Assembly (NCBI GenBank): GCA_024763505.1
Contig: JANTFI010000001.1
Span: 8,602-72,601 of the forward strand
Length of the DNA stretch: 64,000 bases
Reading direction: 5' to 3'
Source of the DNA: Gammaproteobacteria bacterium
Lineage (GTDB): Bacteria; Pseudomonadota; Gammaproteobacteria; GCA-001735895
The position numbers and the translations under genes are program-made. The notes beneath the pieces were generated by a model. The model made no database searches and had not been told where the DNA came from. It saw only the letters and a list, made by a program, of their open reading frames with translations. Shown one piece after another: positions 1,761 through 48,035 of the stretch; position 1 is the first letter of the stretch, and each line of letters begins with the position of its first letter.

Positions 1761-2549
1761 CTAGACGGGGTTGCGCAGGGCCTTGAAGAAATTCTTGACC
1801 CCGCCTTTCAGAAAATAATAATTTTTGATACCCAGATCCTGCAGATAATACTGCAACCAGCGAACCTGTTTTCCGACTTCGTCATACACCAGTAACGGTT
1901 TGCCGGATTTTTGCACAGCCTTGAGAAATTCAAGTAATTTCTGGTTTTCATCCATCGAAATGCTTTCCTGCCGGTACGGAAAAAGTTCCAACAGACCGCG
2001 CTGGGTGGGTTCGCGAATATCCAGAACGACAGTATTGTCGGTGATTCTGGCATTGAATTCAGCCGGTTCAAGCAAGGATTTCTTGAAGTCATCCTTGCTG
2101 ATCAATTGGGATGGATTGATCGGGCTTTTTCCCAGCAAAGTGGCTTTGTCGGGATGGGCTCGAGCCCAGTCGAATACGCCGGAATCGTAGGCATAAACAT
2201 TTTTGAGCCCGGCATTCTGCGCCTTTCGCGCGGCCTTGTAGGATTTATAGCAGGTATGTCCATTGCAATAAAATACCAGTGGACGCTGATTGACAGACTG
2301 TAATTCTTTAATGGCGGAAACAAATCCGCTTTTATTGAGTGGAATGTGTACCGCATTGTTGATGTGCAGGGTTTTGAATTCCAGCGCAGAACGGACGTCG
2401 ACAATATCGACCTGATCGAAATTCTGATTCAATAGCTCGGTTTCATAAACCTGGATATGCGGGTAGGTTTTACGTCCCGGATAGTCATCGGCATGCGCCA
2501 GCATGGGTAACAAGCAGCCAATCAGACTGAAAACAAGGGTCATTTTCAT
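1761..2549 (-). CDS. Periplasmic tandem rhodanese-domain (sulfurtransferase-like) protein.
   Basis: 262 aa with an N-terminal signal peptide ([20 protein letters not shown]). Two rhodanese-like halves; the first has the CNGHTC active-site loop context ([11 protein letters not shown]). Confidence 0.7.
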
Positions 2550-5434: not shown

Positions 5435-6106
5435 TCAGAGATCGACCCAGCGGCGTACCAGATTATTGAAGGTGGCACTGACCTTGCGGGTGGCTTCCTG
5501 ATCGGGTAATTGCTTGAACAGCATTTCCCGCGCCTGATTCAATTCATACAACATTTCGCGTTTGGCCGGGTCTCGCACGGTGCTTTGCGCCCAGGTTACA
5601 GCGACGTAACGCACGCCGCGGGTGACCGGCGCGACAAAATGCCGGCTGTGCGAGGGATACACTACAACGCTACCGGCCGCGAGTTTGATCTTGCGCTCGC
5701 CGTAGCTGTCGCGAATCACCAGTTCGCCACCATCATATTCATCCGGCTCCGACAAAAACACTGTCATCGAAAGATCGGTACGATACAGATCACCCTGTCC
5801 CATGATCGGGTCATCGACATGCTCACCATATTCCATGCCTGATTCATAGCGCGCGTAAAACGGAGCCGCGACGCGTTTCGGCCAGGCCACCGCCTTGAAT
5901 TTTGGATGCCGTACCAGATTTCCCATCACCAGTTCGTTGAGTTGATTGAAGTGCGCCGATTGTGGGTTCATTTCCTGATTTTTCTTGACGCCCCGAGCGA
6001 CCAAACCGGCTGACAGCTTGCCATCGACAAACGGAGAATCCTCCAGCAGTTGCCTGATTTTAGTCAGGTTTTGTGCGGATATTAAATGATCGATGGAAGC
6101 TAACAT
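5435..6106 (-). CDS. PKHD-type Fe(II)/2-oxoglutarate-dependent hydroxylase (YbiX/PiuC family).
   Basis: 223 aa. HxD...H iron-binding triad context (EHVDDP ... YPSHSRHFVAPV), size and layout as in the YbiX family. Confidence 0.7.
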   Translation of the reverse strand: MLASIDHLISAQNLTKIRQLLEDSPFVDGKLSAGLVARGVKKNQEMNPQSAHFNQLNELVMGNLVRHPKFKAVAWPKRVAAPFYARYESGMEYGEHVDDPIMGQGDLYRTDLSMTVFLSEPDEYDGGELVIRDSYGERKIKLAAGSVVVYPSHSRHFVAPVTRGVRYVAVTWAQSTVRDPAKREMLYELNQAREMLFKQLPDQEATRKVSATFNNLVRRWVDL

Positions 6107-14980: not shown

Positions 14981-15574
14981 CTAAAACTTGCTGATGGCCT
15001 TGTCGGCATTCGACAGAATACGTGAACTTAGCTGTTGCGGATCGATGCTGCGTTCTCGATCACCCTGGCCGATCAGGTCTTCACGCATGTGCACCGTCAA
15101 CCGCGCCAGTGCTCGGGAGATATCGTCCGATTCGTCATCGTTTAGTGCCAGATCGGATACCGAAGCGGAAATTGCGGTGACAAAACGGCTGTATTCATCG
15201 AGTACGGAAGGAGAAGCTGCAATGGCTAGCCGGTGACTGAAAAATTCCAGATGTAACAAATCTCGTTCGGTCAGTTCGGCTCGAGCCAGAACCTGTTCGA
15301 GGTCCTGAATAATATCCATATAAAGCTCTGATTTCAGCTCCATATAACGCAGACTTTGTTCCTTTTTCAACTCGACTTCGGTTTGTTTGTTGAGCAGCAA
15401 AGCAGTGATCAGCACCGTCATCAGGGTGCCCATTACGATTAGCACAACTTCCTGAGCGAACGGGATGTCATCGGTAATCTTGTATTCGTATCGAAGCAAG
15501 ATATAACCGCCGATGATAATGATTGCAGTCAACAGCAAGAGCAGGAATTTATAGGCGGCGCGTGTGAAAGTCAT
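14981..15574 (-). CDS. Membrane-anchored hypothetical protein.
   Basis: 197 aa. Two N-terminal TM helices, then an acidic coiled-coil-like tail. Confidence 0.45.
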   Translation of the reverse strand: MTFTRAAYKFLLLLLTAIIIIGGYILLRYEYKITDDIPFAQEVVLIVMGTLMTVLITALLLNKQTEVELKKEQSLRYMELKSELYMDIIQDLEQVLARAELTERDLLHLEFFSHRLAIAASPSVLDEYSRFVTAISASVSDLALNDDESDDISRALARLTVHMREDLIGQGDRERSIDPQQLSSRILSNADKAISKF

Positions 15575-15746
15575 TACCAGAGAATCATTTTTGGGAAGGC
15601 TCGAGTATGCTGTTGGCGAAGAGGCTAATCAAGTCTCCGGGTGCAGAATTTATTTGCCTTGGCCCATTGAAACCACCTGATTCGCCCTTACTAATGCAAT
15701 AAGCAATTTTTAAGAAGTTCAACAGGAATAAACAGGAGAAAATAAC

Positions 15747-16265
15747 ATGAGCATGCAACAAAACGAAAAACTCGACCATATTCTCAAGGCACTGGATCCG
15801 ATCGAATTGGCACCGGCAGAGTATCCGCCAGCAGTGATCGTGCGCGAGTCAGATCGAGACGAATTGATGGCGCGGGTCAAAGAAAATGCACAAGCAACCG
15901 GCATTCAGCTGGATCAGGATCATTACGAAGTCATCGATTTCCTGTTTGATTTCTACAGCAATTGCTGCGCCCAGGATGACCCGGGATTTATCGATCCGCT
16001 AAATTACTGGAAAAAGGTCGACAAGATGCAAGCCAAAGACAGTAGTGACAATACCGAGCGATGCCCGTATGGACAGTTATCGTCAAGCGAGGCGCTGAAT
16101 GCCTGGCGTATCTATCGTGTTTTGGTCAAGGCATTCAAGGACAAGGGCGGTAAAAAACATCTATACACCCTGTTTCCTTTTGGTCCGATCTTTACCATTC
16201 ATTTACTGGCGCAACTGCCGCGTCTGTTGAATGATACCGATCGCCATTACGGCACCGCTTTTTGA
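15747..16265 (+). CDS. DsrC/TusE-family-like protein lacking the C-terminal catalytic cysteines.
   Basis: 172 aa. HYEVIDFLFDFY and KKHLYTLFPFGP...AQLPRL match the conserved HWEVVRFVRDFY / YLYRLFPKGP...AGLPKP blocks of E. coli TusE and A. vinosum DsrC. The protein ends ..RHYGTAF with no CxxxxxxxxxxC tail. Confidence 0.5.
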   Translation: MSMQQNEKLDHILKALDPIELAPAEYPPAVIVRESDRDELMARVKENAQATGIQLDQDHYEVIDFLFDFYSNCCAQDDPGFIDPLNYWKKVDKMQAKDSSDNTERCPYGQLSSSEALNAWRIYRVLVKAFKDKGGKKHLYTLFPFGPIFTIHLLAQLPRLLNDTDRHYGTAF

Positions 16266-16305
16266 TCGGTTCGAGCTTTCCCATGTAAAAACGGGGCAGG
16301 GTGGA

Positions 16306-17433
16306 TCACTCTGTCCCGTCACTGATTTTTGGCGGCGAATTCAGTAAAACACCGTCCGGCACATGCACGGTTGAAGTCGGGTATGCGATTTCGGCGCCAT
16401 GCCGGGTGATGATGGCACTGATCTGGAACAAGACATCCTGCTTGACCTCGTGGAATTTCACCCAGTTGGTGGTTTTGGTAAAGGTGTACACAAAGAAATT
16501 CAGTGACGAAGCAGCGAAGCTGTCGAAATTAACCATCAGGGTCTGGCTGGTATCGATCTCCGGGTGGTTCAGCAGCATCTCGCGCACCTCCGTGAGAATA
16601 TCTTCCAGCCTGTCCACATCATCATAACGCACACCAATGGTTTCATAGATTCGTCGGTGCGTCATGCGCGAAGGGTTGACCACTGCGATATTGGCGAAGG
16701 TCGAATTCGGTACATAAATCGGCCGTTTGTCAAAACTTCGGATGCGCGTCAAGCGCCAGCCGATATCTTCGACGGTGCCTTCGATATCGCGGTCAGGTGA
16801 TTTGATCCAGTCGCCGACAAAAAACGGACGATCGAGATAAATCATCAGTCCGCCAAAAAAATTGGCCAGTAAATCCTTGGCAGCAAAACCCACTGCAATG
16901 CCGCCGACTCCGCCAAAGGCCAGCACGCCTGAAATACTGAAACCCAGCGTCTGCAACATGACCAGCCCTGCGGTGATAATGATCGACAGGCGAATCAATT
17001 TGCCGATCGCCTCGACGGTCGAGCGGTCGTAGTTTTCATCCTGCGCCAGCCCGATCTCCACCAGATTCTGCTGAAAATTGCGGATCAGCCGAACCAGAAA
17101 CCAGCTCAGAGCAGAAATCACACCGATAATTCTCAGCGGCTCGACTGCATCGAACAGGCTGGAATGAGCCTCCTTGCCAGCGATATCGGCTGCAAAGGCC
17201 AAACCCAGTACCCAGATCAATAATGTCAAAGGCCGTTGCAGGGCATGTATCAGCGCGTCATCCCAGGGGTTTTCGGTATGCCTGAATTTATGCGCCAGCC
17301 GCTTTAGCAGTAGCCGTTGTACCAGATCCAGCGCCAGCGCCAGTAGCACCACGATAAACAGACGTCCGACCCAGCTATTGGCACCGGTCCAAACCTGCAG
17401 TTGGGCGATCAAATCATTTAATGAATTTTCCAT
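16306..17433 (-). CDS. Small-conductance mechanosensitive channel, MscS family.
   Basis: 375 aa. TM3 and the beta-domain signature (GGIAVGFAAKDLLANFFGGLMIYLDRPFFVGDWI) are typical of MscS-like channels. Confidence 0.85.
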   Translation of the reverse strand: MENSLNDLIAQLQVWTGANSWVGRLFIVVLLALALDLVQRLLLKRLAHKFRHTENPWDDALIHALQRPLTLLIWVLGLAFAADIAGKEAHSSLFDAVEPLRIIGVISALSWFLVRLIRNFQQNLVEIGLAQDENYDRSTVEAIGKLIRLSIIITAGLVMLQTLGFSISGVLAFGGVGGIAVGFAAKDLLANFFGGLMIYLDRPFFVGDWIKSPDRDIEGTVEDIGWRLTRIRSFDKRPIYVPNSTFANIAVVNPSRMTHRRIYETIGVRYDDVDRLEDILTEVREMLLNHPEIDTSQTLMVNFDSFAASSLNFFVYTFTKTTNWVKFHEVKQDVLFQISAIITRHGAEIAYPTSTVHVPDGVLLNSPPKISDGTE

Positions 17434-43232: not shown

Positions 43233-44027
43233 ATGTTCCTGAGACACGCACAAAATGCGTTGACATTGTCCTGGTATTTGAGTGTCGCATTGGTTATTTA
43301 TATCGGTTGGTCAGTCCGAGAGCAACGCTATCTGTTGGCTGAATCGGGTATTGGCTATTGGCTTGGCATTATCGGCGGAGCCATGATGCTGTTGCTTCTT
43401 TATTATCCGGTTCGTAAACGAAAGCCACGCTGGAAATATTCCGGCTCGATCAAATTCTGGTTTCGCTTCCACATGTTTCTGGGAATCGCGGGTCCAGTAC
43501 TGATTATTCTCCATTCCGGCTATCGACTGGGATCACTCAATGGCACGGTCGCATTTTTCTGCATGTTGATCGTGGCTGGCAGCGGGCTGATTGGCCGCTA
43601 TCTGTACCGGCGTATTCATCATGGCTTGTATGGCGAAAAAATCCGCTTCGAAGAGCTGTATCACAAGGATCAAAGCTGGGAAGAAAAGCTCGCAGAACTG
43701 AAGAATAAATATCCCGAACCGGTGGAAAAGCTCGGTGTTATTGAATCTCAACTGGTACAACACGGAGCCGCTGCCAGCCGTTCTCTCTGGTTTTACCAGT
43801 CGATGCAGTGGCAGTTGCAGACATTGAAGCGACAAATCATTCAGCAGTTGGGAAAAAATTCCGCAGACAGCGCCGGATTTCAGCAACGAATTCAAAGCCT
43901 GAAATCGATCACCAGCCTCGGAGTCCACGAGATTCTGTTTTCATACTGGCATATCCTGCATTTTCCCTTATTCATCATGCTGCTCATCTCCGGCATTACT
44001 CATGTCGTCGTGGTGCATTTTTACTAA
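43233..44027 (+). CDS. Polytopic His-rich membrane protein, candidate b-type cytochrome / quinol-side electron-transfer subunit.
   Basis: 264 aa. About 5 TM helices with conserved-looking His pairs (FRFHMFLGIAGPVLIILHSGY, YWHILHFPLFIMLLISGITHVVVVHFY). Its stop overlaps the start of the first multiheme cytochrome. Confidence 0.45.
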   Translation: MFLRHAQNALTLSWYLSVALVIYIGWSVREQRYLLAESGIGYWLGIIGGAMMLLLLYYPVRKRKPRWKYSGSIKFWFRFHMFLGIAGPVLIILHSGYRLGSLNGTVAFFCMLIVAGSGLIGRYLYRRIHHGLYGEKIRFEELYHKDQSWEEKLAELKNKYPEPVEKLGVIESQLVQHGAAASRSLWFYQSMQWQLQTLKRQIIQQLGKNSADSAGFQQRIQSLKSITSLGVHEILFSYWHILHFPLFIMLLISGITHVVVVHFY

Positions 44028-45592
44028 TGAAAAGGTTATGGACCACATTGTTTCTGCTGGCTCTACTGGTTAGCCAATCGGCCTGGGGTATCAGTCTGGA
44101 AAACCTGTTCTCTCCGGGTGAATTGATCGACGGGCATGCCAAAATCCAGCAAGATTGCAAGCAATGCCATGTGCGCGGGCGTGATCTCACGCAAAACGAT
44201 TTGTGTCTGGATTGCCATGAAAAGGTTAGCGCCGATGTCCACAACCGCAAGGGGTTTCATGGTCGTAGCGAACAAGTGGAATCCGTACAGTGTCGATCCT
44301 GCCATACCGATCACAAGGGCAGGGATGCCGATATTGTGTGGCTGGATCAGGATCGCTTCAACCATGAAATGAGCGATTACCGGCTGATTGGCAAGCACCG
44401 GCAAGCGAAATGCGAGAGTTGCCACGAGTCAGACAAACATTATCGCGAAGCCCCCTCGGCCTGCATTGATTGCCACAAGAAAGACGACGTGCACAAAAAC
44501 AAGCTGGGTAAAAAATGCGGGTCTTGCCATAACCCGAAAGCCTGGAGCAGTGAACAATTCGATCATGACCAGACGGCATTCAAACTCCGCTTTGCCCATA
44601 AACAAGTCGCCTGCGATCTTTGCCATGTCGAAAACCGCTACAAGAAAACGCCGAAAACCTGTGTTTCCTGTCATGCCATCAAGGATGTTCACCAAAACCG
44701 TTTCGGTAATGACTGCAAAGCCTGTCACAACACTGAAAAATGGGAAAAGCCGCGCTTCGATCACGACCGCAATACGCGTTTCAAACTCGAATCCAGTCAT
44801 CGTTCGGTTGGTTGCAACGCTTGCCATGCGCGTACCCGGCAAGCCTTACCCGGAAAAAAATCCAGTCCCCGTCGCTGTATTGCCTGCCACAAGCTCGATG
44901 ATGTGCATCAAGGCGAAAACGGAAAACGCTGTGAGCAATGCCATGCCGAGGATCGCTGGTCGAAAAACAGCTTTGACCATGATCAGGACACGAAATTTAA
45001 ATTGCGCGGCGCTCATGCCAAGGCCAGTTGCGAATCCTGTCATCAGAAAGATTTACGCGGAAAGAAAACCAGCCCGGCCTGTTACAGCTGCCACCAGCAT
45101 CAAGATGCACACAAGGGCCAGGAAGGGGAATCCTGCGAAACCTGTCATAACGATAAAAGCTGGTGGTTGGAAGATGTGCGCTATGACCATGATTTAAGCG
45201 ATTTTCCGTTGCTCGGCCAGCATGCCGTGGTCGGTTGCGAAGCATGCCATTTGTCTTCCGCGTTCAAGGATGTCAAGCAAGCCTGTGTCGATTGTCATGC
45301 AGAAGATGACATCCACGATCAGACTTTGGGGCAAAAATGCCAGCAGTGCCATAACCCGAACGATTGGCTGATTTGGCAATTCGACCACAATCGAACCGAT
45401 TTCAAACTGAAAGGCGCGCATGAAAAGCTGCATTGCCGGCTTTGTCATAACCGGCCAATGGAAAATGCAGTCGAGCTCAAGCAGCAATGTATCGACTGCC
45501 ATCGTGCCGATGATGTGCACGATGGCAATTTTGGCGGCGATTGCGAGCGTTGCCATAACCAGACAGATTTTTCTGTCATTCAAATCAATTAA
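44027..45592 (+). CDS. Multiheme c-type cytochrome with 21 CxxCH motifs, built from 7 triheme (c7-like) modules.
   Basis: 521 aa. Signal peptide MKRLWTTLFLLALLVSQSAWG. 21 CxxCH motifs counted by eye. Recurring module FDHDxTxFKLxGAHxxxxCxxCH...CxxCHxxDDVHxxxxGxxCxxCH. Confidence 0.85.
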   Translation: MKRLWTTLFLLALLVSQSAWGISLENLFSPGELIDGHAKIQQDCKQCHVRGRDLTQNDLCLDCHEKVSADVHNRKGFHGRSEQVESVQCRSCHTDHKGRDADIVWLDQDRFNHEMSDYRLIGKHRQAKCESCHESDKHYREAPSACIDCHKKDDVHKNKLGKKCGSCHNPKAWSSEQFDHDQTAFKLRFAHKQVACDLCHVENRYKKTPKTCVSCHAIKDVHQNRFGNDCKACHNTEKWEKPRFDHDRNTRFKLESSHRSVGCNACHARTRQALPGKKSSPRRCIACHKLDDVHQGENGKRCEQCHAEDRWSKNSFDHDQDTKFKLRGAHAKASCESCHQKDLRGKKTSPACYSCHQHQDAHKGQEGESCETCHNDKSWWLEDVRYDHDLSDFPLLGQHAVVGCEACHLSSAFKDVKQACVDCHAEDDIHDQTLGQKCQQCHNPNDWLIWQFDHNRTDFKLKGAHEKLHCRLCHNRPMENAVELKQQCIDCHRADDVHDGNFGGDCERCHNQTDFSVIQIN

Positions 45593-45875
45593 CGGAGCAG
45601 TGGCGTCGGCTTTACATTGGGCGGATGGTCATTGAGGCAGTGGAAGGCAGGGATGCCTCGAGAACGGGAAAGGCAGTTTTTTTTGGTTATTGTGGTGCAA
45701 GCCTTGTGCGGGTTGATGCGAAAACTTCTCGCTTATTCACAACTGTACTTAGGCAATAACCCACCGGGGAATGAATCCACCAGAAAAAGATTTTACCACT
45801 GCAAGATCCCGAATTCGTTTCGACCTGAATACATTACTTCAGGCCGAACCGGTTTCAGCCACTGAGGAGACGATC

Positions 45876-48035
45876 ATGAAGAACCGCACCGAAATCCGGG
45901 TAGAGCCGCAAACCCGCATGCATTACCAGCCATTCGCGTGGTTGCTGTTGATGTTTGCACTGTTGCTTGCATGGCAAAATGCCAGCTTCGCGGCCCAGCA
46001 ACCTTTTGATCATGATGACACCCGTTTCCCGCTGGATTTTTCTCATGCGCGCGTCAGTTGTGATTCCTGCCATCTGCAAGGCGTTTTCAAGGGCACACCG
46101 GTCAATTGTTCGGGATGTCATGCCAGTGCCAGCCGCATTCAGGCCAGTAGCAAGTCGCCTTCGCATATCAATAGTTCGAATGATTGTGAATTCTGTCATC
46201 AAAGCGGCAACTGGAATGTCGTCACGCGTGTTGACCATTTTGCCGTCAGCGGCAGTTGCCAGAGTTGTCACAACGGCATCAATTCGATGGGCAAAAATCC
46301 GCAACATATCCAGAGCAGCAACCAATGTGATGATTGCCATGTCACATCGAGCTGGAGCAATGCGGTTTTTGATCATGCTGGTGTCATCGGCAGTTGCGTC
46401 ACTTGCCACAATGGCAGTATCGCCACGGGCAAGCATCCAAGCCATATCCTGTCAACCCAGAATTGTGAAGATTGTCATCGAACCATCAGTTGGAAACCGG
46501 CCAGCCGGGTCGATCATGACGCCGTCATTGGCAGTTGCAGCAGTTGTCATAACGGTGTGTTGGCAGAAGGCAAGAATGCCACCCATATTGCAACGACCGC
46601 TCAATGCGACGAGTGCCACAATACCGTGTCCTGGTCATCGGCGACCTTCAATCATGATGGTGTGACTACAGGCTGTTCGAGTTGTCACAATGGCGCTGCC
46701 GCCAAAGGCAAGCATCCACAACATATCGCTTCGACCAATGAATGCGAAGCTTGTCATGCGATCAATCGCTGGGCTCCGGCAACCCGGGTCGATCATGATG
46801 CCGTGAGCGGTAGTTGTTCCAGCTGTCATAATGGTGTGATTGCGACTGGCAAGAGCGCTGACCATTTGAATACAAGCAGTGAATGCGACAGTTGTCATAG
46901 CACGATCAACTGGAATTCGGCCAGTTTCAACCATGATGGTATTACCGATGCCTGTTTCAGTTGCCATAACGGTGTGCAGGAGACGGGTAAAACGCCGCAA
47001 CATATTTCGACCACCAATGATTGCGAACTATGCCATGCACCGTTTGGCTGGGCGCCAGCAACAAGGGTGGATCATGATGCAGTTACCGGCACTTGCTCCA
47101 GTTGTCATAACGGTGTGACTGCCATCGGAAAGAGTCCGCAGCATATTGCCACCAACAGCGAATGCGACAGTTGCCACAACACTATCAACTGGATCTCGGC
47201 CAATTTTACCCATGACGGAATCACGTCTTCCTGCTCGAGTTGTCATAACAGTGTGCAGGCGACCGGCAAGAATCCGCAGCATATAGCCTCAAGCAATGAC
47301 TGTGAACTGTGCCATACCAGCATCGGCTGGATACCGGTGACCCGGGTCGACCATGATGCGGTGAGTGGAACATGCTCGAGTTGTCACAACGGTGTCACGG
47401 CAACCGGTAAAACCGCCGCTCATGTCACGACCAGTAGCGAATGTGATAGCTGTCATACATCCACGGTAAGTTGGAGTACGGTGAATTTTGATCATGCGGG
47501 CGTAACCGGAAACTGTATCAGTTGCCACGATGGTATTACGGCCACGGGCAAGAATCCTCAGCATGTCTCTACCACTAACGAATGCGTGCTATGCCATTCG
47601 ACGGTGGGCTGGGCGCCGGTCCTCAAGGTTGATCATGATGCGGTGCTGGGATCCTGTTCGAGTTGTCATAATGGCACCGTTTCTACCGGTAAGCCGGCAG
47701 ATCACTTTGTCACTGTCAAGGAGTGTGACTATTGTCATTCCACCGTTTCCTGGCCGAGTCTGACCTTTACTCATCAGTCGGTGAATTACCCGGGTGACCA
47801 TCGCGGTTCACTCAGTTGCGTGAGCTGTCACACCGCCAACAGTGAAACCATGATCTGGCCGTTCCCGGCTTATAAGCCAGATTGCGCAGGCTGTCACGCC
47901 AGTGACTATCGACAAAACAAGCATGAAAACTTTAATAATGGCTTCTTCACGGTCAGTGAATTGAGAGACTGCACCGGTGCCTGCCACTCTTCTGCAGGGC
48001 ATCACCGGATTACTGACAGGAGTTGGGGAAATTGA
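45876..48035 (+). CDS. Multiheme c-type cytochrome with 27 CxxCH plus one CxxxCH, built from about 13 tandem paired-CXXCH repeat units.
   Basis: 719 aa. GAGGAG Shine-Dalgarno 7 nt upstream. Signal peptide. Repeat unit about 45 aa: HIxSSNxC[DE]xCH...W...[VF][DN]HDxVxGxCSSCHNGVxATGKxPQ. Confidence 0.85.
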   Translation: MKNRTEIRVEPQTRMHYQPFAWLLLMFALLLAWQNASFAAQQPFDHDDTRFPLDFSHARVSCDSCHLQGVFKGTPVNCSGCHASASRIQASSKSPSHINSSNDCEFCHQSGNWNVVTRVDHFAVSGSCQSCHNGINSMGKNPQHIQSSNQCDDCHVTSSWSNAVFDHAGVIGSCVTCHNGSIATGKHPSHILSTQNCEDCHRTISWKPASRVDHDAVIGSCSSCHNGVLAEGKNATHIATTAQCDECHNTVSWSSATFNHDGVTTGCSSCHNGAAAKGKHPQHIASTNECEACHAINRWAPATRVDHDAVSGSCSSCHNGVIATGKSADHLNTSSECDSCHSTINWNSASFNHDGITDACFSCHNGVQETGKTPQHISTTNDCELCHAPFGWAPATRVDHDAVTGTCSSCHNGVTAIGKSPQHIATNSECDSCHNTINWISANFTHDGITSSCSSCHNSVQATGKNPQHIASSNDCELCHTSIGWIPVTRVDHDAVSGTCSSCHNGVTATGKTAAHVTTSSECDSCHTSTVSWSTVNFDHAGVTGNCISCHDGITATGKNPQHVSTTNECVLCHSTVGWAPVLKVDHDAVLGSCSSCHNGTVSTGKPADHFVTVKECDYCHSTVSWPSLTFTHQSVNYPGDHRGSLSCVSCHTANSETMIWPFPAYKPDCAGCHASDYRQNKHENFNNGFFTVSELRDCTGACHSSAGHHRITDRSWGN
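46080..47720 (+). repeat. Intragenic tandem DNA repeats (about 135 bp unit, about 12 copies, diverged) encoding the paired-CXXCH modules.
   Basis: Recurrent ...gtcgatcatgatgc(g/c)gt...ggcagttgc(a/t)c(c/g)agttgtcataa(c/t)gg... segments at regular spacing through the gene. Confidence 0.7.

Follow-up and report, generated by a model that had tools for sequence, protein, structure and literature searches.

Introduction

DsrC is the gamma subunit, or substrate-carrying partner, of dissimilatory sulfite reductase, and in organisms with DsrAB its arm has a second cysteine, CysB (Cys100). In the 2-thiouridine sulfur relay of E. coli, the penultimate cysteine of TusE accepts sulfur from TusD. A further class of related proteins, RspA, was reportedly first defined by Venceslau et al. 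in 2014. In DsrC, Cys111 (CysA) was found to be the sole sulfur-binding residue and to be needed for the interaction with DsrEFH (Stockdreher et al. 2012, PMC3397948). The name DsrC/TusE/RspA family is used in the DiSCo paper (PMC8477390), and the genome paper of A. vinosum stated that the roles of DsrC paralogs of this kind “remain to be established” (PMC3368242). The gene analyzed here lies in a 64,000-nucleotide stretch (hereafter the window) of contig JANTFI010000001.1 from a gammaproteobacterium (assembly GCA_024763505.1). It encodes a 172-amino-acid (aa) DsrC-like protein, which an earlier note made from the sequence had described as a DsrC/TusE-family paralog with an N-terminal extension and no catalytic C-terminal cysteines.

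The analysis showed which fold the protein has, that the cysteines of its arm are lost, how its residues and gene neighborhood are conserved, and which promoter and operator motifs accompany the gene. On this basis, we tentatively propose that the protein could be induced under stress and act as a binding protein, with cysteines and histidine as a metal or redox switch, and would not be a sulfur relay; to this reading we give somewhat less than an even chance. A search of the literature on DsrC paralogs in heat-shock contexts returned nothing relevant.

Results

A lineage-restricted family with the DsrC fold

The open reading frame (ORF) starts with ATG, and its product matched PF04358 (DsrC) of Pfam in two stretches with 30.6 bits (gathering cut-off 24.9, E=4.9e-7). 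Since PF04358 cleared its gathering cut-off, the reservation of the earlier note that a hidden Markov model (HMM) search might give no significant hit did not hold. The scores for TIGR03342 of NCBIfam (TusE/DsrC/DsvC; 33.5 bits, curated cut-off 53.5) and for the TusE model NF008562 (27.2 bits, cut-off 191) were below the cut-offs. PF04358 was also matched by homologs in precomputed annotation, though these matches were graded “faint” there. When PDB sequences were searched with a profile of 31 family sequences, A. vinosum DsrC (1yx3) was matched in two blocks with E=5.1e-9. The window protein also has the three-dimensional fold of DsrC, and its assignment as a paralog within the DsrC/TusE superfamily was confirmed.

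Among 5.8 billion proteins, 75 relatives were found, nearly all of them 168-180 aa long and 48-84% identical over the full length, and the family alignments, with 31 and 44 sequences, contained about 30 invariant positions. At E<1e-30, a filter-free HMM search of 1.84 billion representatives at 50% identity gave, apart from a few fragments, a single full-length cluster. The carriers in all 37 loci from species-representative genomes were marine, vent or sediment sulfur-oxidizing Gammaproteobacteria, including Thiotrichaceae, Chromatiaceae (among them the complete genome CP037918.1), Sedimenticola, Thiohalobacter, and Cocleimonas. Between the window and the other loci of its clade, L011, L013, and L016, the ratio of nonsynonymous to synonymous substitution rates (dN/dS) of the gene was 0.06-0.12. 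These results showed that the gene is real and represents a narrow, lineage-restricted family, which is a member of the DsrC superfamily by PF04358 and by fold. A chance ORF or a decaying pseudogene that resembles DsrC at the level of motifs only, to which the unreached curated cut-offs of TIGR03342 and the TusE model might point, was refuted by these results, and its probability is practically nil.

A search of all ORFs of the window with the family profile (hmmsearch) detected no second DsrC-family gene. The Rfam scan of positions 15300-16600 at E<=1 gave no matches, and no PADLOC defense model matched the DsrC-like protein or its 197-aa neighbor.

In one metagenomic protein, P0075 (96 aa, encoded on a 1-kb contig), the last ~46 residues were the C-terminus of the DsrC-like family, and the N-terminal ~50 residues, which resembled no part of the family, matched DUF692/MNIO of Pfam. 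A true DUF692/MNIO-DsrC-like fusion was set aside here, as a chimera of assembly or gene calling was suspected.

The remodeled arm and the internal insertion

The conserved motifs quoted in the earlier note were present in the window protein as H59-YEVIDFLFDF-Y70, H138-LYTLFPFGP147, and L157-P158, together with the C-terminus ...LLNDTDRHYGTAF. In the comparison of the family profile with 1yx3, profile positions 47-71 aligned with DsrC residues 55-79 and positions 128-163 with residues 87-127, while positions 72-127 corresponded to DsrC residues 79-87. Because of this two-block match, about 48 family residues stand for 8 residues of DsrC, and the internal insertion of ~40-48 aa between both blocks makes up most of the extra length of the protein. 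The N-terminal extension proved to be minor, since the N-terminus was only ~11-14 aa longer than that of DsrC and was remodeled into a helix followed by a proline-rich segment. This segment was invariant in the family as L-x-P-(V/I)-x-L-P-P-A-(E/D)-Y-P-P-A, with LPPAEYPPA in the window protein.

In the arm, according to both the HMMER alignment to 1yx3 and the explicit MAFFT alignment with canonical DsrC and TusE, Cys100 of A. vinosum (CysB) is matched by an invariant histidine, His152, and Cys111 (CysA) by a nearly invariant aspartate, Asp163, and the reported absence of the arm cysteines was borne out. A conserved tail of nine residues extends beyond Asp163, with the sequence xDxHxGTA[FY] in the family and TDRHYGTAF in the window protein. 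Residues H152, L157, P158, R159, L160, H167, G169, and A171 of the arm and tail were invariant in the family. Both arm cysteines being absent, and given the role of Cys111 in sulfur binding (PMC3397948), the alignments exclude that the arm of the window protein relays sulfur in the classical manner of DsrC or TusE.

New cysteines and a putative Cys/His site

The term “Cys-less” in the earlier note did not apply to the protein as a whole. Three cysteines, C73, C74, and C106, bracket the insertion of the window protein; in the 31- and 44-sequence alignments, C73 and C106 were invariant and C74 was nearly invariant. Thus C73, C106, H152, and H167 were all retained in 31-44 sequences with 48-84% identity. 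The spacing of the cysteines was CC-x~20-C-x6-7-C-x~10-C in the family and CC-x31-C in the window protein.

The filter-free HMM search also recovered a wider, diverse group of DsrC-like proteins of 110-130 aa, which lack CysA and carry the tail ...LPxLxxxxDxxFGT(A/S)(F/Y). Within this tail-extended group, a Cys pair right after the FxxxY helix was present in 7 of the 9 proteins with His at the CysB position but in 0 of the 46 others (Fisher p=1.8e-7, calculated on 50%-identity representatives and not corrected for phylogeny). The pair, which has the form CxxC or Cx4-5C, was located exactly at the place of C73. Because of this co-occurrence, we infer that the Cys pair and the histidine at the CysB position form one functional site, metal or redox. 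The window family may have arisen by insertion of ~40 residues between both cysteines of the Cys motif of the wider group.

A sister family of 122 aa was observed in Thiothrix and Thiolinea (L046-L052; for example, L048 5854-6324 and L049 2934-3302), with a CxxC motif, His at the CysB position, and an FGT(S/R)(F/Y) tail. Its neighbors encode a secreted Tyr/Gln-rich protein, a BON-LysM (YgaU/Kbp)-like protein, the likeness of which was judged by eye from N-terminal residues, and an EF-hand-like protein, which together form a different stress-type neighborhood.

Genomic neighborhood in related loci

Neighboring genes were counted in 36 non-redundant related loci, within ~6 kb around the DsrC-like gene. 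Neither the 64-kb window nor these neighborhoods contained dsr, tus, mnmA or isc genes, and an association with dsrAB, dsrEFH or dsrMK was found in neither of them; tusA, tusBCD, dsrEFH, mnmA, and iscS were absent from all 36 neighborhoods. This absence bears on the possibility that the protein has remained a sulfur carrier; its reactive site would have moved from the arm to C73/C74/C106, and it would act as a persulfide shuttle under stress, for example in Fe-S repair, tRNA thiolation or sulfane-sulfur detoxification. The confinement of the family to sulfur-oxidizing Gammaproteobacteria, the conserved cysteines including the vicinal CC, the rhodanese genes close by in L013 and at other places in the window, and thioredoxin 2 (trxC) as a frequent neighbor are consistent with such a carrier. 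However, besides the missing relay genes, the penultimate cysteine, on which sulfur binding and DsrEFH interaction of DsrC are based (PMC3397948), is lost, and the covarying histidine at the CysB position is more in keeping with a metal site than with a persulfide carrier. We therefore regard a relocated sulfur carrier as unlikely.

The genes that do recur belong largely to the heat-shock and thiol-stress responses. Directly 3' of the DsrC-like gene, dnaK was found in 12 of the 36 loci, its product scoring above the DnaK equivalog cut-offs, and yfdX, which mostly follows dnaK, was found at this place in two loci. A gene for a 348-aa HPF/S30AE protein took the same position in nine loci. This protein has an N-terminal HPF/S30AE domain and C-terminal segments resembling sigma70 region 2/4 or PhyR-sigma, with matches that were sub-threshold. 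The trxC gene was present in eight loci; in five, trxC-cbpA-cbpM and three hsp20 genes were located upstream in divergent orientation. A KefB/C-type exchanger was encoded upstream and divergently in eight loci, and Crp-family regulator genes were present in ten. An M48 peptidase, copper-resistance genes, and a metallo-beta-lactamase were each confined to single loci.

In the clade of the window, the gene order was CDGSH, DsbA-like, a 207-aa membrane protein on the opposite strand, DsrC-like, convergent mscS, and trxC; the position of mscS was kept in L011, L013, and L016, with trxC next to it. The divergent neighbor in the window, the 197-aa protein with two predicted transmembrane (TM) segments, had no match in Pfam, NCBIfam or PADLOC. 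Its homologs (38-44% identity, tblastn) were located near the DsrC-like gene in L013, L017, L018, L020, L039, L041, and L043, and also 3' of yfdX in Thiotrichaceae clusters. In its relatives, the DsrC-like gene thus sits in a heat-shock and thiol-stress neighborhood and not in a sulfur-metabolism context. The suggestion that the protein is a regulatory or binding paralog remained plausible, but this neighborhood and the stress-type promoters across the 36 loci do not point to sulfur regulation.

The genes directly downstream raise a fairly unlikely but attractive alternative, which overlaps with the model of a stress-induced binding protein. The DsrC-like protein might modulate the 348-aa HPF/sigma-like protein in a partner-switch or anti-sigma manner, or it might be a dedicated DnaK modulator, as CbpM is for CbpA; the arm would then act, and the cysteines would be structural only. 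In agreement with this, the HPF/sigma-like gene begins 40-55 nt downstream in its nine loci and dnaK 24-54 nt downstream in several, the cbpA-cbpM pair is divergent in five loci, and the arm LPRL(L/I/R), like the Pro-rich motif at the N-terminus, is invariant. Yet neither partner gene adjoins the DsrC-like gene in the clade of the window or in about one third of the loci, known anti-sigma factors, GrpE, and CbpM show no homology to the DsrC-like protein, and the sigma-like label of the 348-aa protein comes from sub-threshold matches.

The combination of HPF/S30AE with sigma70/PhyR-like segments in a protein of ~348 aa is in itself an unusual architecture; examples are encoded in L004 (8572-9618), L033 (6560-7606), L019 (1650-2663), L025 (4958-5995), L009 (9655-10704), and L034 (4017-5054).

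Operator and promoter motifs

A near-perfect palindrome, TGTCA-N6-TGACA (hereafter the box), was found upstream of the DsrC-like gene in 20 of the 36 loci, 50-215 nt before the start and mostly at -75 to -130. Sites of the box also preceded dnaK, the operons of hsp20 and trxC, and genes for PDZ and Usp proteins, and all loci together contained 59 sites with at most one mismatch, compared with 16 expected. The box was present in all ten loci with a Crp-family gene, and the 16 box-less loci were all devoid of such a gene, while the DsrC-like gene was present in box-bearing and box-less loci alike. Because the box co-occurs with the Crp-family gene and not with the DsrC-like gene, the neighboring Crp-like protein is its likely binder, and the DsrC-like protein was rejected as a candidate for this role. 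It looks as though a Crp/Fnr-family factor runs a heat-shock and stress regulon in Thiotrichaceae.

Individual sites of the box were located at 5788, 5926, 6538, 9958, and 11916 in L005, at 3986, 4945, 5869, 6580, and 11989 in L043, at 295, 941, and 6542 in L020, and at 5783, 5902, and 6539 in L026, with others besides.

In box-less loci, the clade of the window included, a sigma32-like element was found. When four divergent upstream regions from this clade were aligned, the sole conserved block was CA(T/C)TG(G/A)AA-N12-14-CCCCATA, which takes the form (T/C)TGGAA-N14-CCCCATA upstream in L013 and L016. Strict sigma32-type matches were present in 6 of 36 upstream regions, where 0.0096 would be expected per 160 nt. 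Around the DsrC-like gene of the window, no promoter of the sigma70 type was detected. Since this promoter type is absent, a sigma32-like element lies 5' of the gene, and a hairpin with a T-run lies 3' of it (Table 1), the gene can be read as a monocistronic heat-shock-type unit.

These motifs also bear on whether the protein is an RspA-type DNA-binding transcription factor, which would autoregulate the stress island by means of the helix-turn-helix-like region in the DsrC fold. Such a role would accord with the grouping of DsrC paralogs without arm cysteines as “RspA” (PMC8477390), with the place of the DsrC-like gene, always first after the regulatory region, and with a conserved Lys-rich segment, KAFKDKGGKK. 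The protein is acidic, however, with a predicted pI of ~5.2 and a net charge of -6 to -10, and the palindrome tracks the Crp/Fnr-family gene as described above, while box-less loci have sigma32-like promoters instead; in the literature examined, DNA binding by RspA proteins was undocumented. Because of the acidic pI and the tracking of the box with the Crp-like gene, the case for a DNA-binding regulator was lowered, and we consider it quite improbable; in this respect the regulatory role suggested in the earlier note was argued against.

Table 1. Positions of the DsrC-like gene, its parts, its signals, and its neighbors in the window
Feature	Position	Strand	Basis
Coding sequence (CDS) of DsrC-fold paralog, 172 aa	15747..16265, stop codon included	+	ORF listing, PF04358 match, homologs, dN/dS
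Shine-Dalgarno AGGAG, 8 nt 5' of ATG	15734..15738	+	Read from sequence
DsrC block 1, residues 45-72, helix ...GIQLDQDHYEVIDFLFDFYSN	15879..15962	+	Best Pfam/TIGR stretch; aligns to 1yx3 55-79
Family-specific insertion, ~residues 73-115	15963..16091	+	Alignments; no counterpart in DsrC or TusE
DsrC block 2, ~residues 116-151: ...RIYRVLVKAFKDKGGKKHLYTLFPFGPIFTI	16092..16199	+	Aligns to 1yx3 87-127; also aligned in MAFFT with canonical DsrC/TusE
Remodeled C-terminal arm, residues 152-172: His152, LPRL, Asp163, tail TDRHYGTAF	16200..16262	+	HMMER vs 1yx3; MAFFT vs canonical DsrC/TusE
Sigma32-like promoter candidate TTGAAA-N12-CCCTTACT (TTGAAA 15667-15672; 12-nt spacer; CCCTTACT 15685-15692)	15667..15692	+	Conserved block in upstream regions of the window's clade
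Terminator-like hairpin, 13 pairs, then T-run; between convergent DsrC-like and mscS genes	16291..16329	+	Terminator scan
Divergent neighbor, 197-aa predicted two-TM protein	14981..15574	-	tblastn homologs near DsrC-like gene
Convergent neighbor, MscS-type mechanosensitive channel	16306..17433	-	Pfam MS_channel domains

Other genes in the window

The sole sulfurtransferase-type gene seen in the window encodes a double-rhodanese-domain protein (1761-2549, minus strand) and has secF on one side and the flagellar rod genes flgG, flgH, and flgI on the other. A molybdopterin oxidoreductase and a ferric-reductase-like membrane protein (25962-27505, plus strand) look like a periplasmic methionine sulfoxide repair pair of the MsrP/MsrQ type. 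Two large tandem multiheme cytochromes c of 594 and 754 aa, with Cytochrome_C7, c3, and MtrC-like domains, are encoded at 43808-48035 (plus strand), with a TPR protein after them and an Fe-S/flavin oxidoreductase upstream (41794-43113, minus strand). Eukaryote-like architectures were observed in a Ser/Thr protein kinase fused to TPR repeats (920 aa; 33727-36489, minus strand) and in an ankyrin/Sel1-repeat protein (671 aa; 39782-41797, minus strand).

Discussion

In the model that we tentatively favor, a stress-induced binding protein with a Cys/His switch, the DsrC scaffold of a globular core and a mobile arm would be kept, while a Cys/His site, together with a new sequence of the arm, would take the place of the sulfur-carrying chemistry. 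The pair formed by C73/C74 and C106, which flanks a loop of ~40 aa, would most likely build, with His152 and possibly Asp163 or His167, a metal site (Zn or Fe-S) or a reversible disulfide. Expression would take place within a heat-shock and thiol-stress regulon, from a monocistronic unit behind a sigma32-like promoter in the clade of the window and, in other clades, behind a Crp/Fnr-type box common to dnaK, hsp20, and trxC-cbpA-cbpM. The protein might then serve as a stress-responsive binding partner or switch for the chaperone and thioredoxin machinery, to which it would dock through the conserved arm and the N-terminal proline-rich segment.

The metal or redox site, the stress induction, and the partner binding of this model are inferred from conservation and context, and several observations weigh against it. 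The Cys complement varies, as C74 is replaced by Thr in some members, and two further cysteines, present in the insertion of most members, are both lost together in the clade of the window. In the AF2 model of the window protein, insertion residues 78-103 had pLDDT values below 50, and in a second AF2 model, made for a member with five cysteines, the insertion still had values of only 50-60. The sigma32-like match of the window is the weakest of the set, with four of six positions in the -10 element and a spacer of 12 nt. The neighborhoods are variable, and the window retains just the 197-aa membrane protein and mscS.

A more specific version of the model, which we put forward as speculative and rather improbable, is that proteostasis took over a sulfur-relay fold. 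In sulfur-oxidizing bacteria, DnaK or the adjacent HPF/sigma-like factor would then have a partner of a new kind, gated by redox state or metal and docking via the arm (LPRLL...HxGTAF) or the Pro-rich N-terminus. Thiol, metal or sulfane-sulfur stress would be signaled by a Cys2-His site to which the former CysB position contributes.

If confirmed, the proposed role would mean that the DsrC scaffold, with its globular core and swinging arm, has been re-used outside sulfur transfer, and it would call for caution against scoring such paralogs as sulfur-relay genes in the annotation of metagenomes. DsrC/TusE paralogs without arm cysteines are common in sulfur bacteria, and the family described here offers a concrete handle on one of them through a covarying, invariant Cys/His constellation, an arm unable to carry sulfur, and a recurrent gene set of dnaK, hsp20, trxC, cbpA-cbpM, kef, and mscS.

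Comparison with known systems

Among stress proteins with a Zn/thiol redox switch, Hsp33 and RsrA provide a functional analogy only, as they are unrelated to the window protein in sequence and fold. Their motifs, CXCX27-32CXXC and HxxxCxxC, are not matched by the Cys spacing of the window protein, and no family or fold match was obtained. What they have in common with it is their small size, their cytoplasmic location, and a conserved Cys(/His) cluster, as well as membership, putative for the window protein, in heat or oxidative-stress regulons beside thioredoxin or chaperone genes.

TusE of the E. coli 2-thiouridine relay belongs to the same superfamily, as the weak NF008562 match indicated, and like the window protein it lacks CysB. 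It differs in the essential penultimate cysteine, which the window protein does not have, in the large gap between 27.2 and 191 bits for the TusE model, and in the tusBCD/mnmA genes, which are not in the neighborhood. The description of RspA as a DsrC fold with neither CysA nor CysB fits the window protein, although this class is loosely defined. The wider tail-extended group shares with the window family the absence of CysA and the ...LPxLxxxxDxxFGT(A/S)(F/Y) tail, and a subset of it further resembles the family in a CxxC or Cx4-5C motif at the place of C73, in His at the CysB position, and in a related N-terminal P-rich motif. The ~40-aa insertion is missing from the proteins of this group, however, their length is smaller by 50 aa, and their neighborhood contains a BON-LysM/YgaU-like gene and a secreted Tyr/Gln-rich protein.

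The best match of the window protein in both sequence and structure was DsrC (A. vinosum 1YX3; D. vulgaris 2V4J chain C). Unlike DsrC, the window protein has Asp at the CysA position, His at the CysB position, a tail of nine residues, and a Cys-bearing insertion of ~40 aa after block 1; the N-terminal β-hairpin region of DsrC is replaced by the helix and the Pro-rich segment, and dsr genes are not nearby. Common to both are the helical fold and the two blocks HWEVIxFLRxYY and YLYxLFPxGP...LP.
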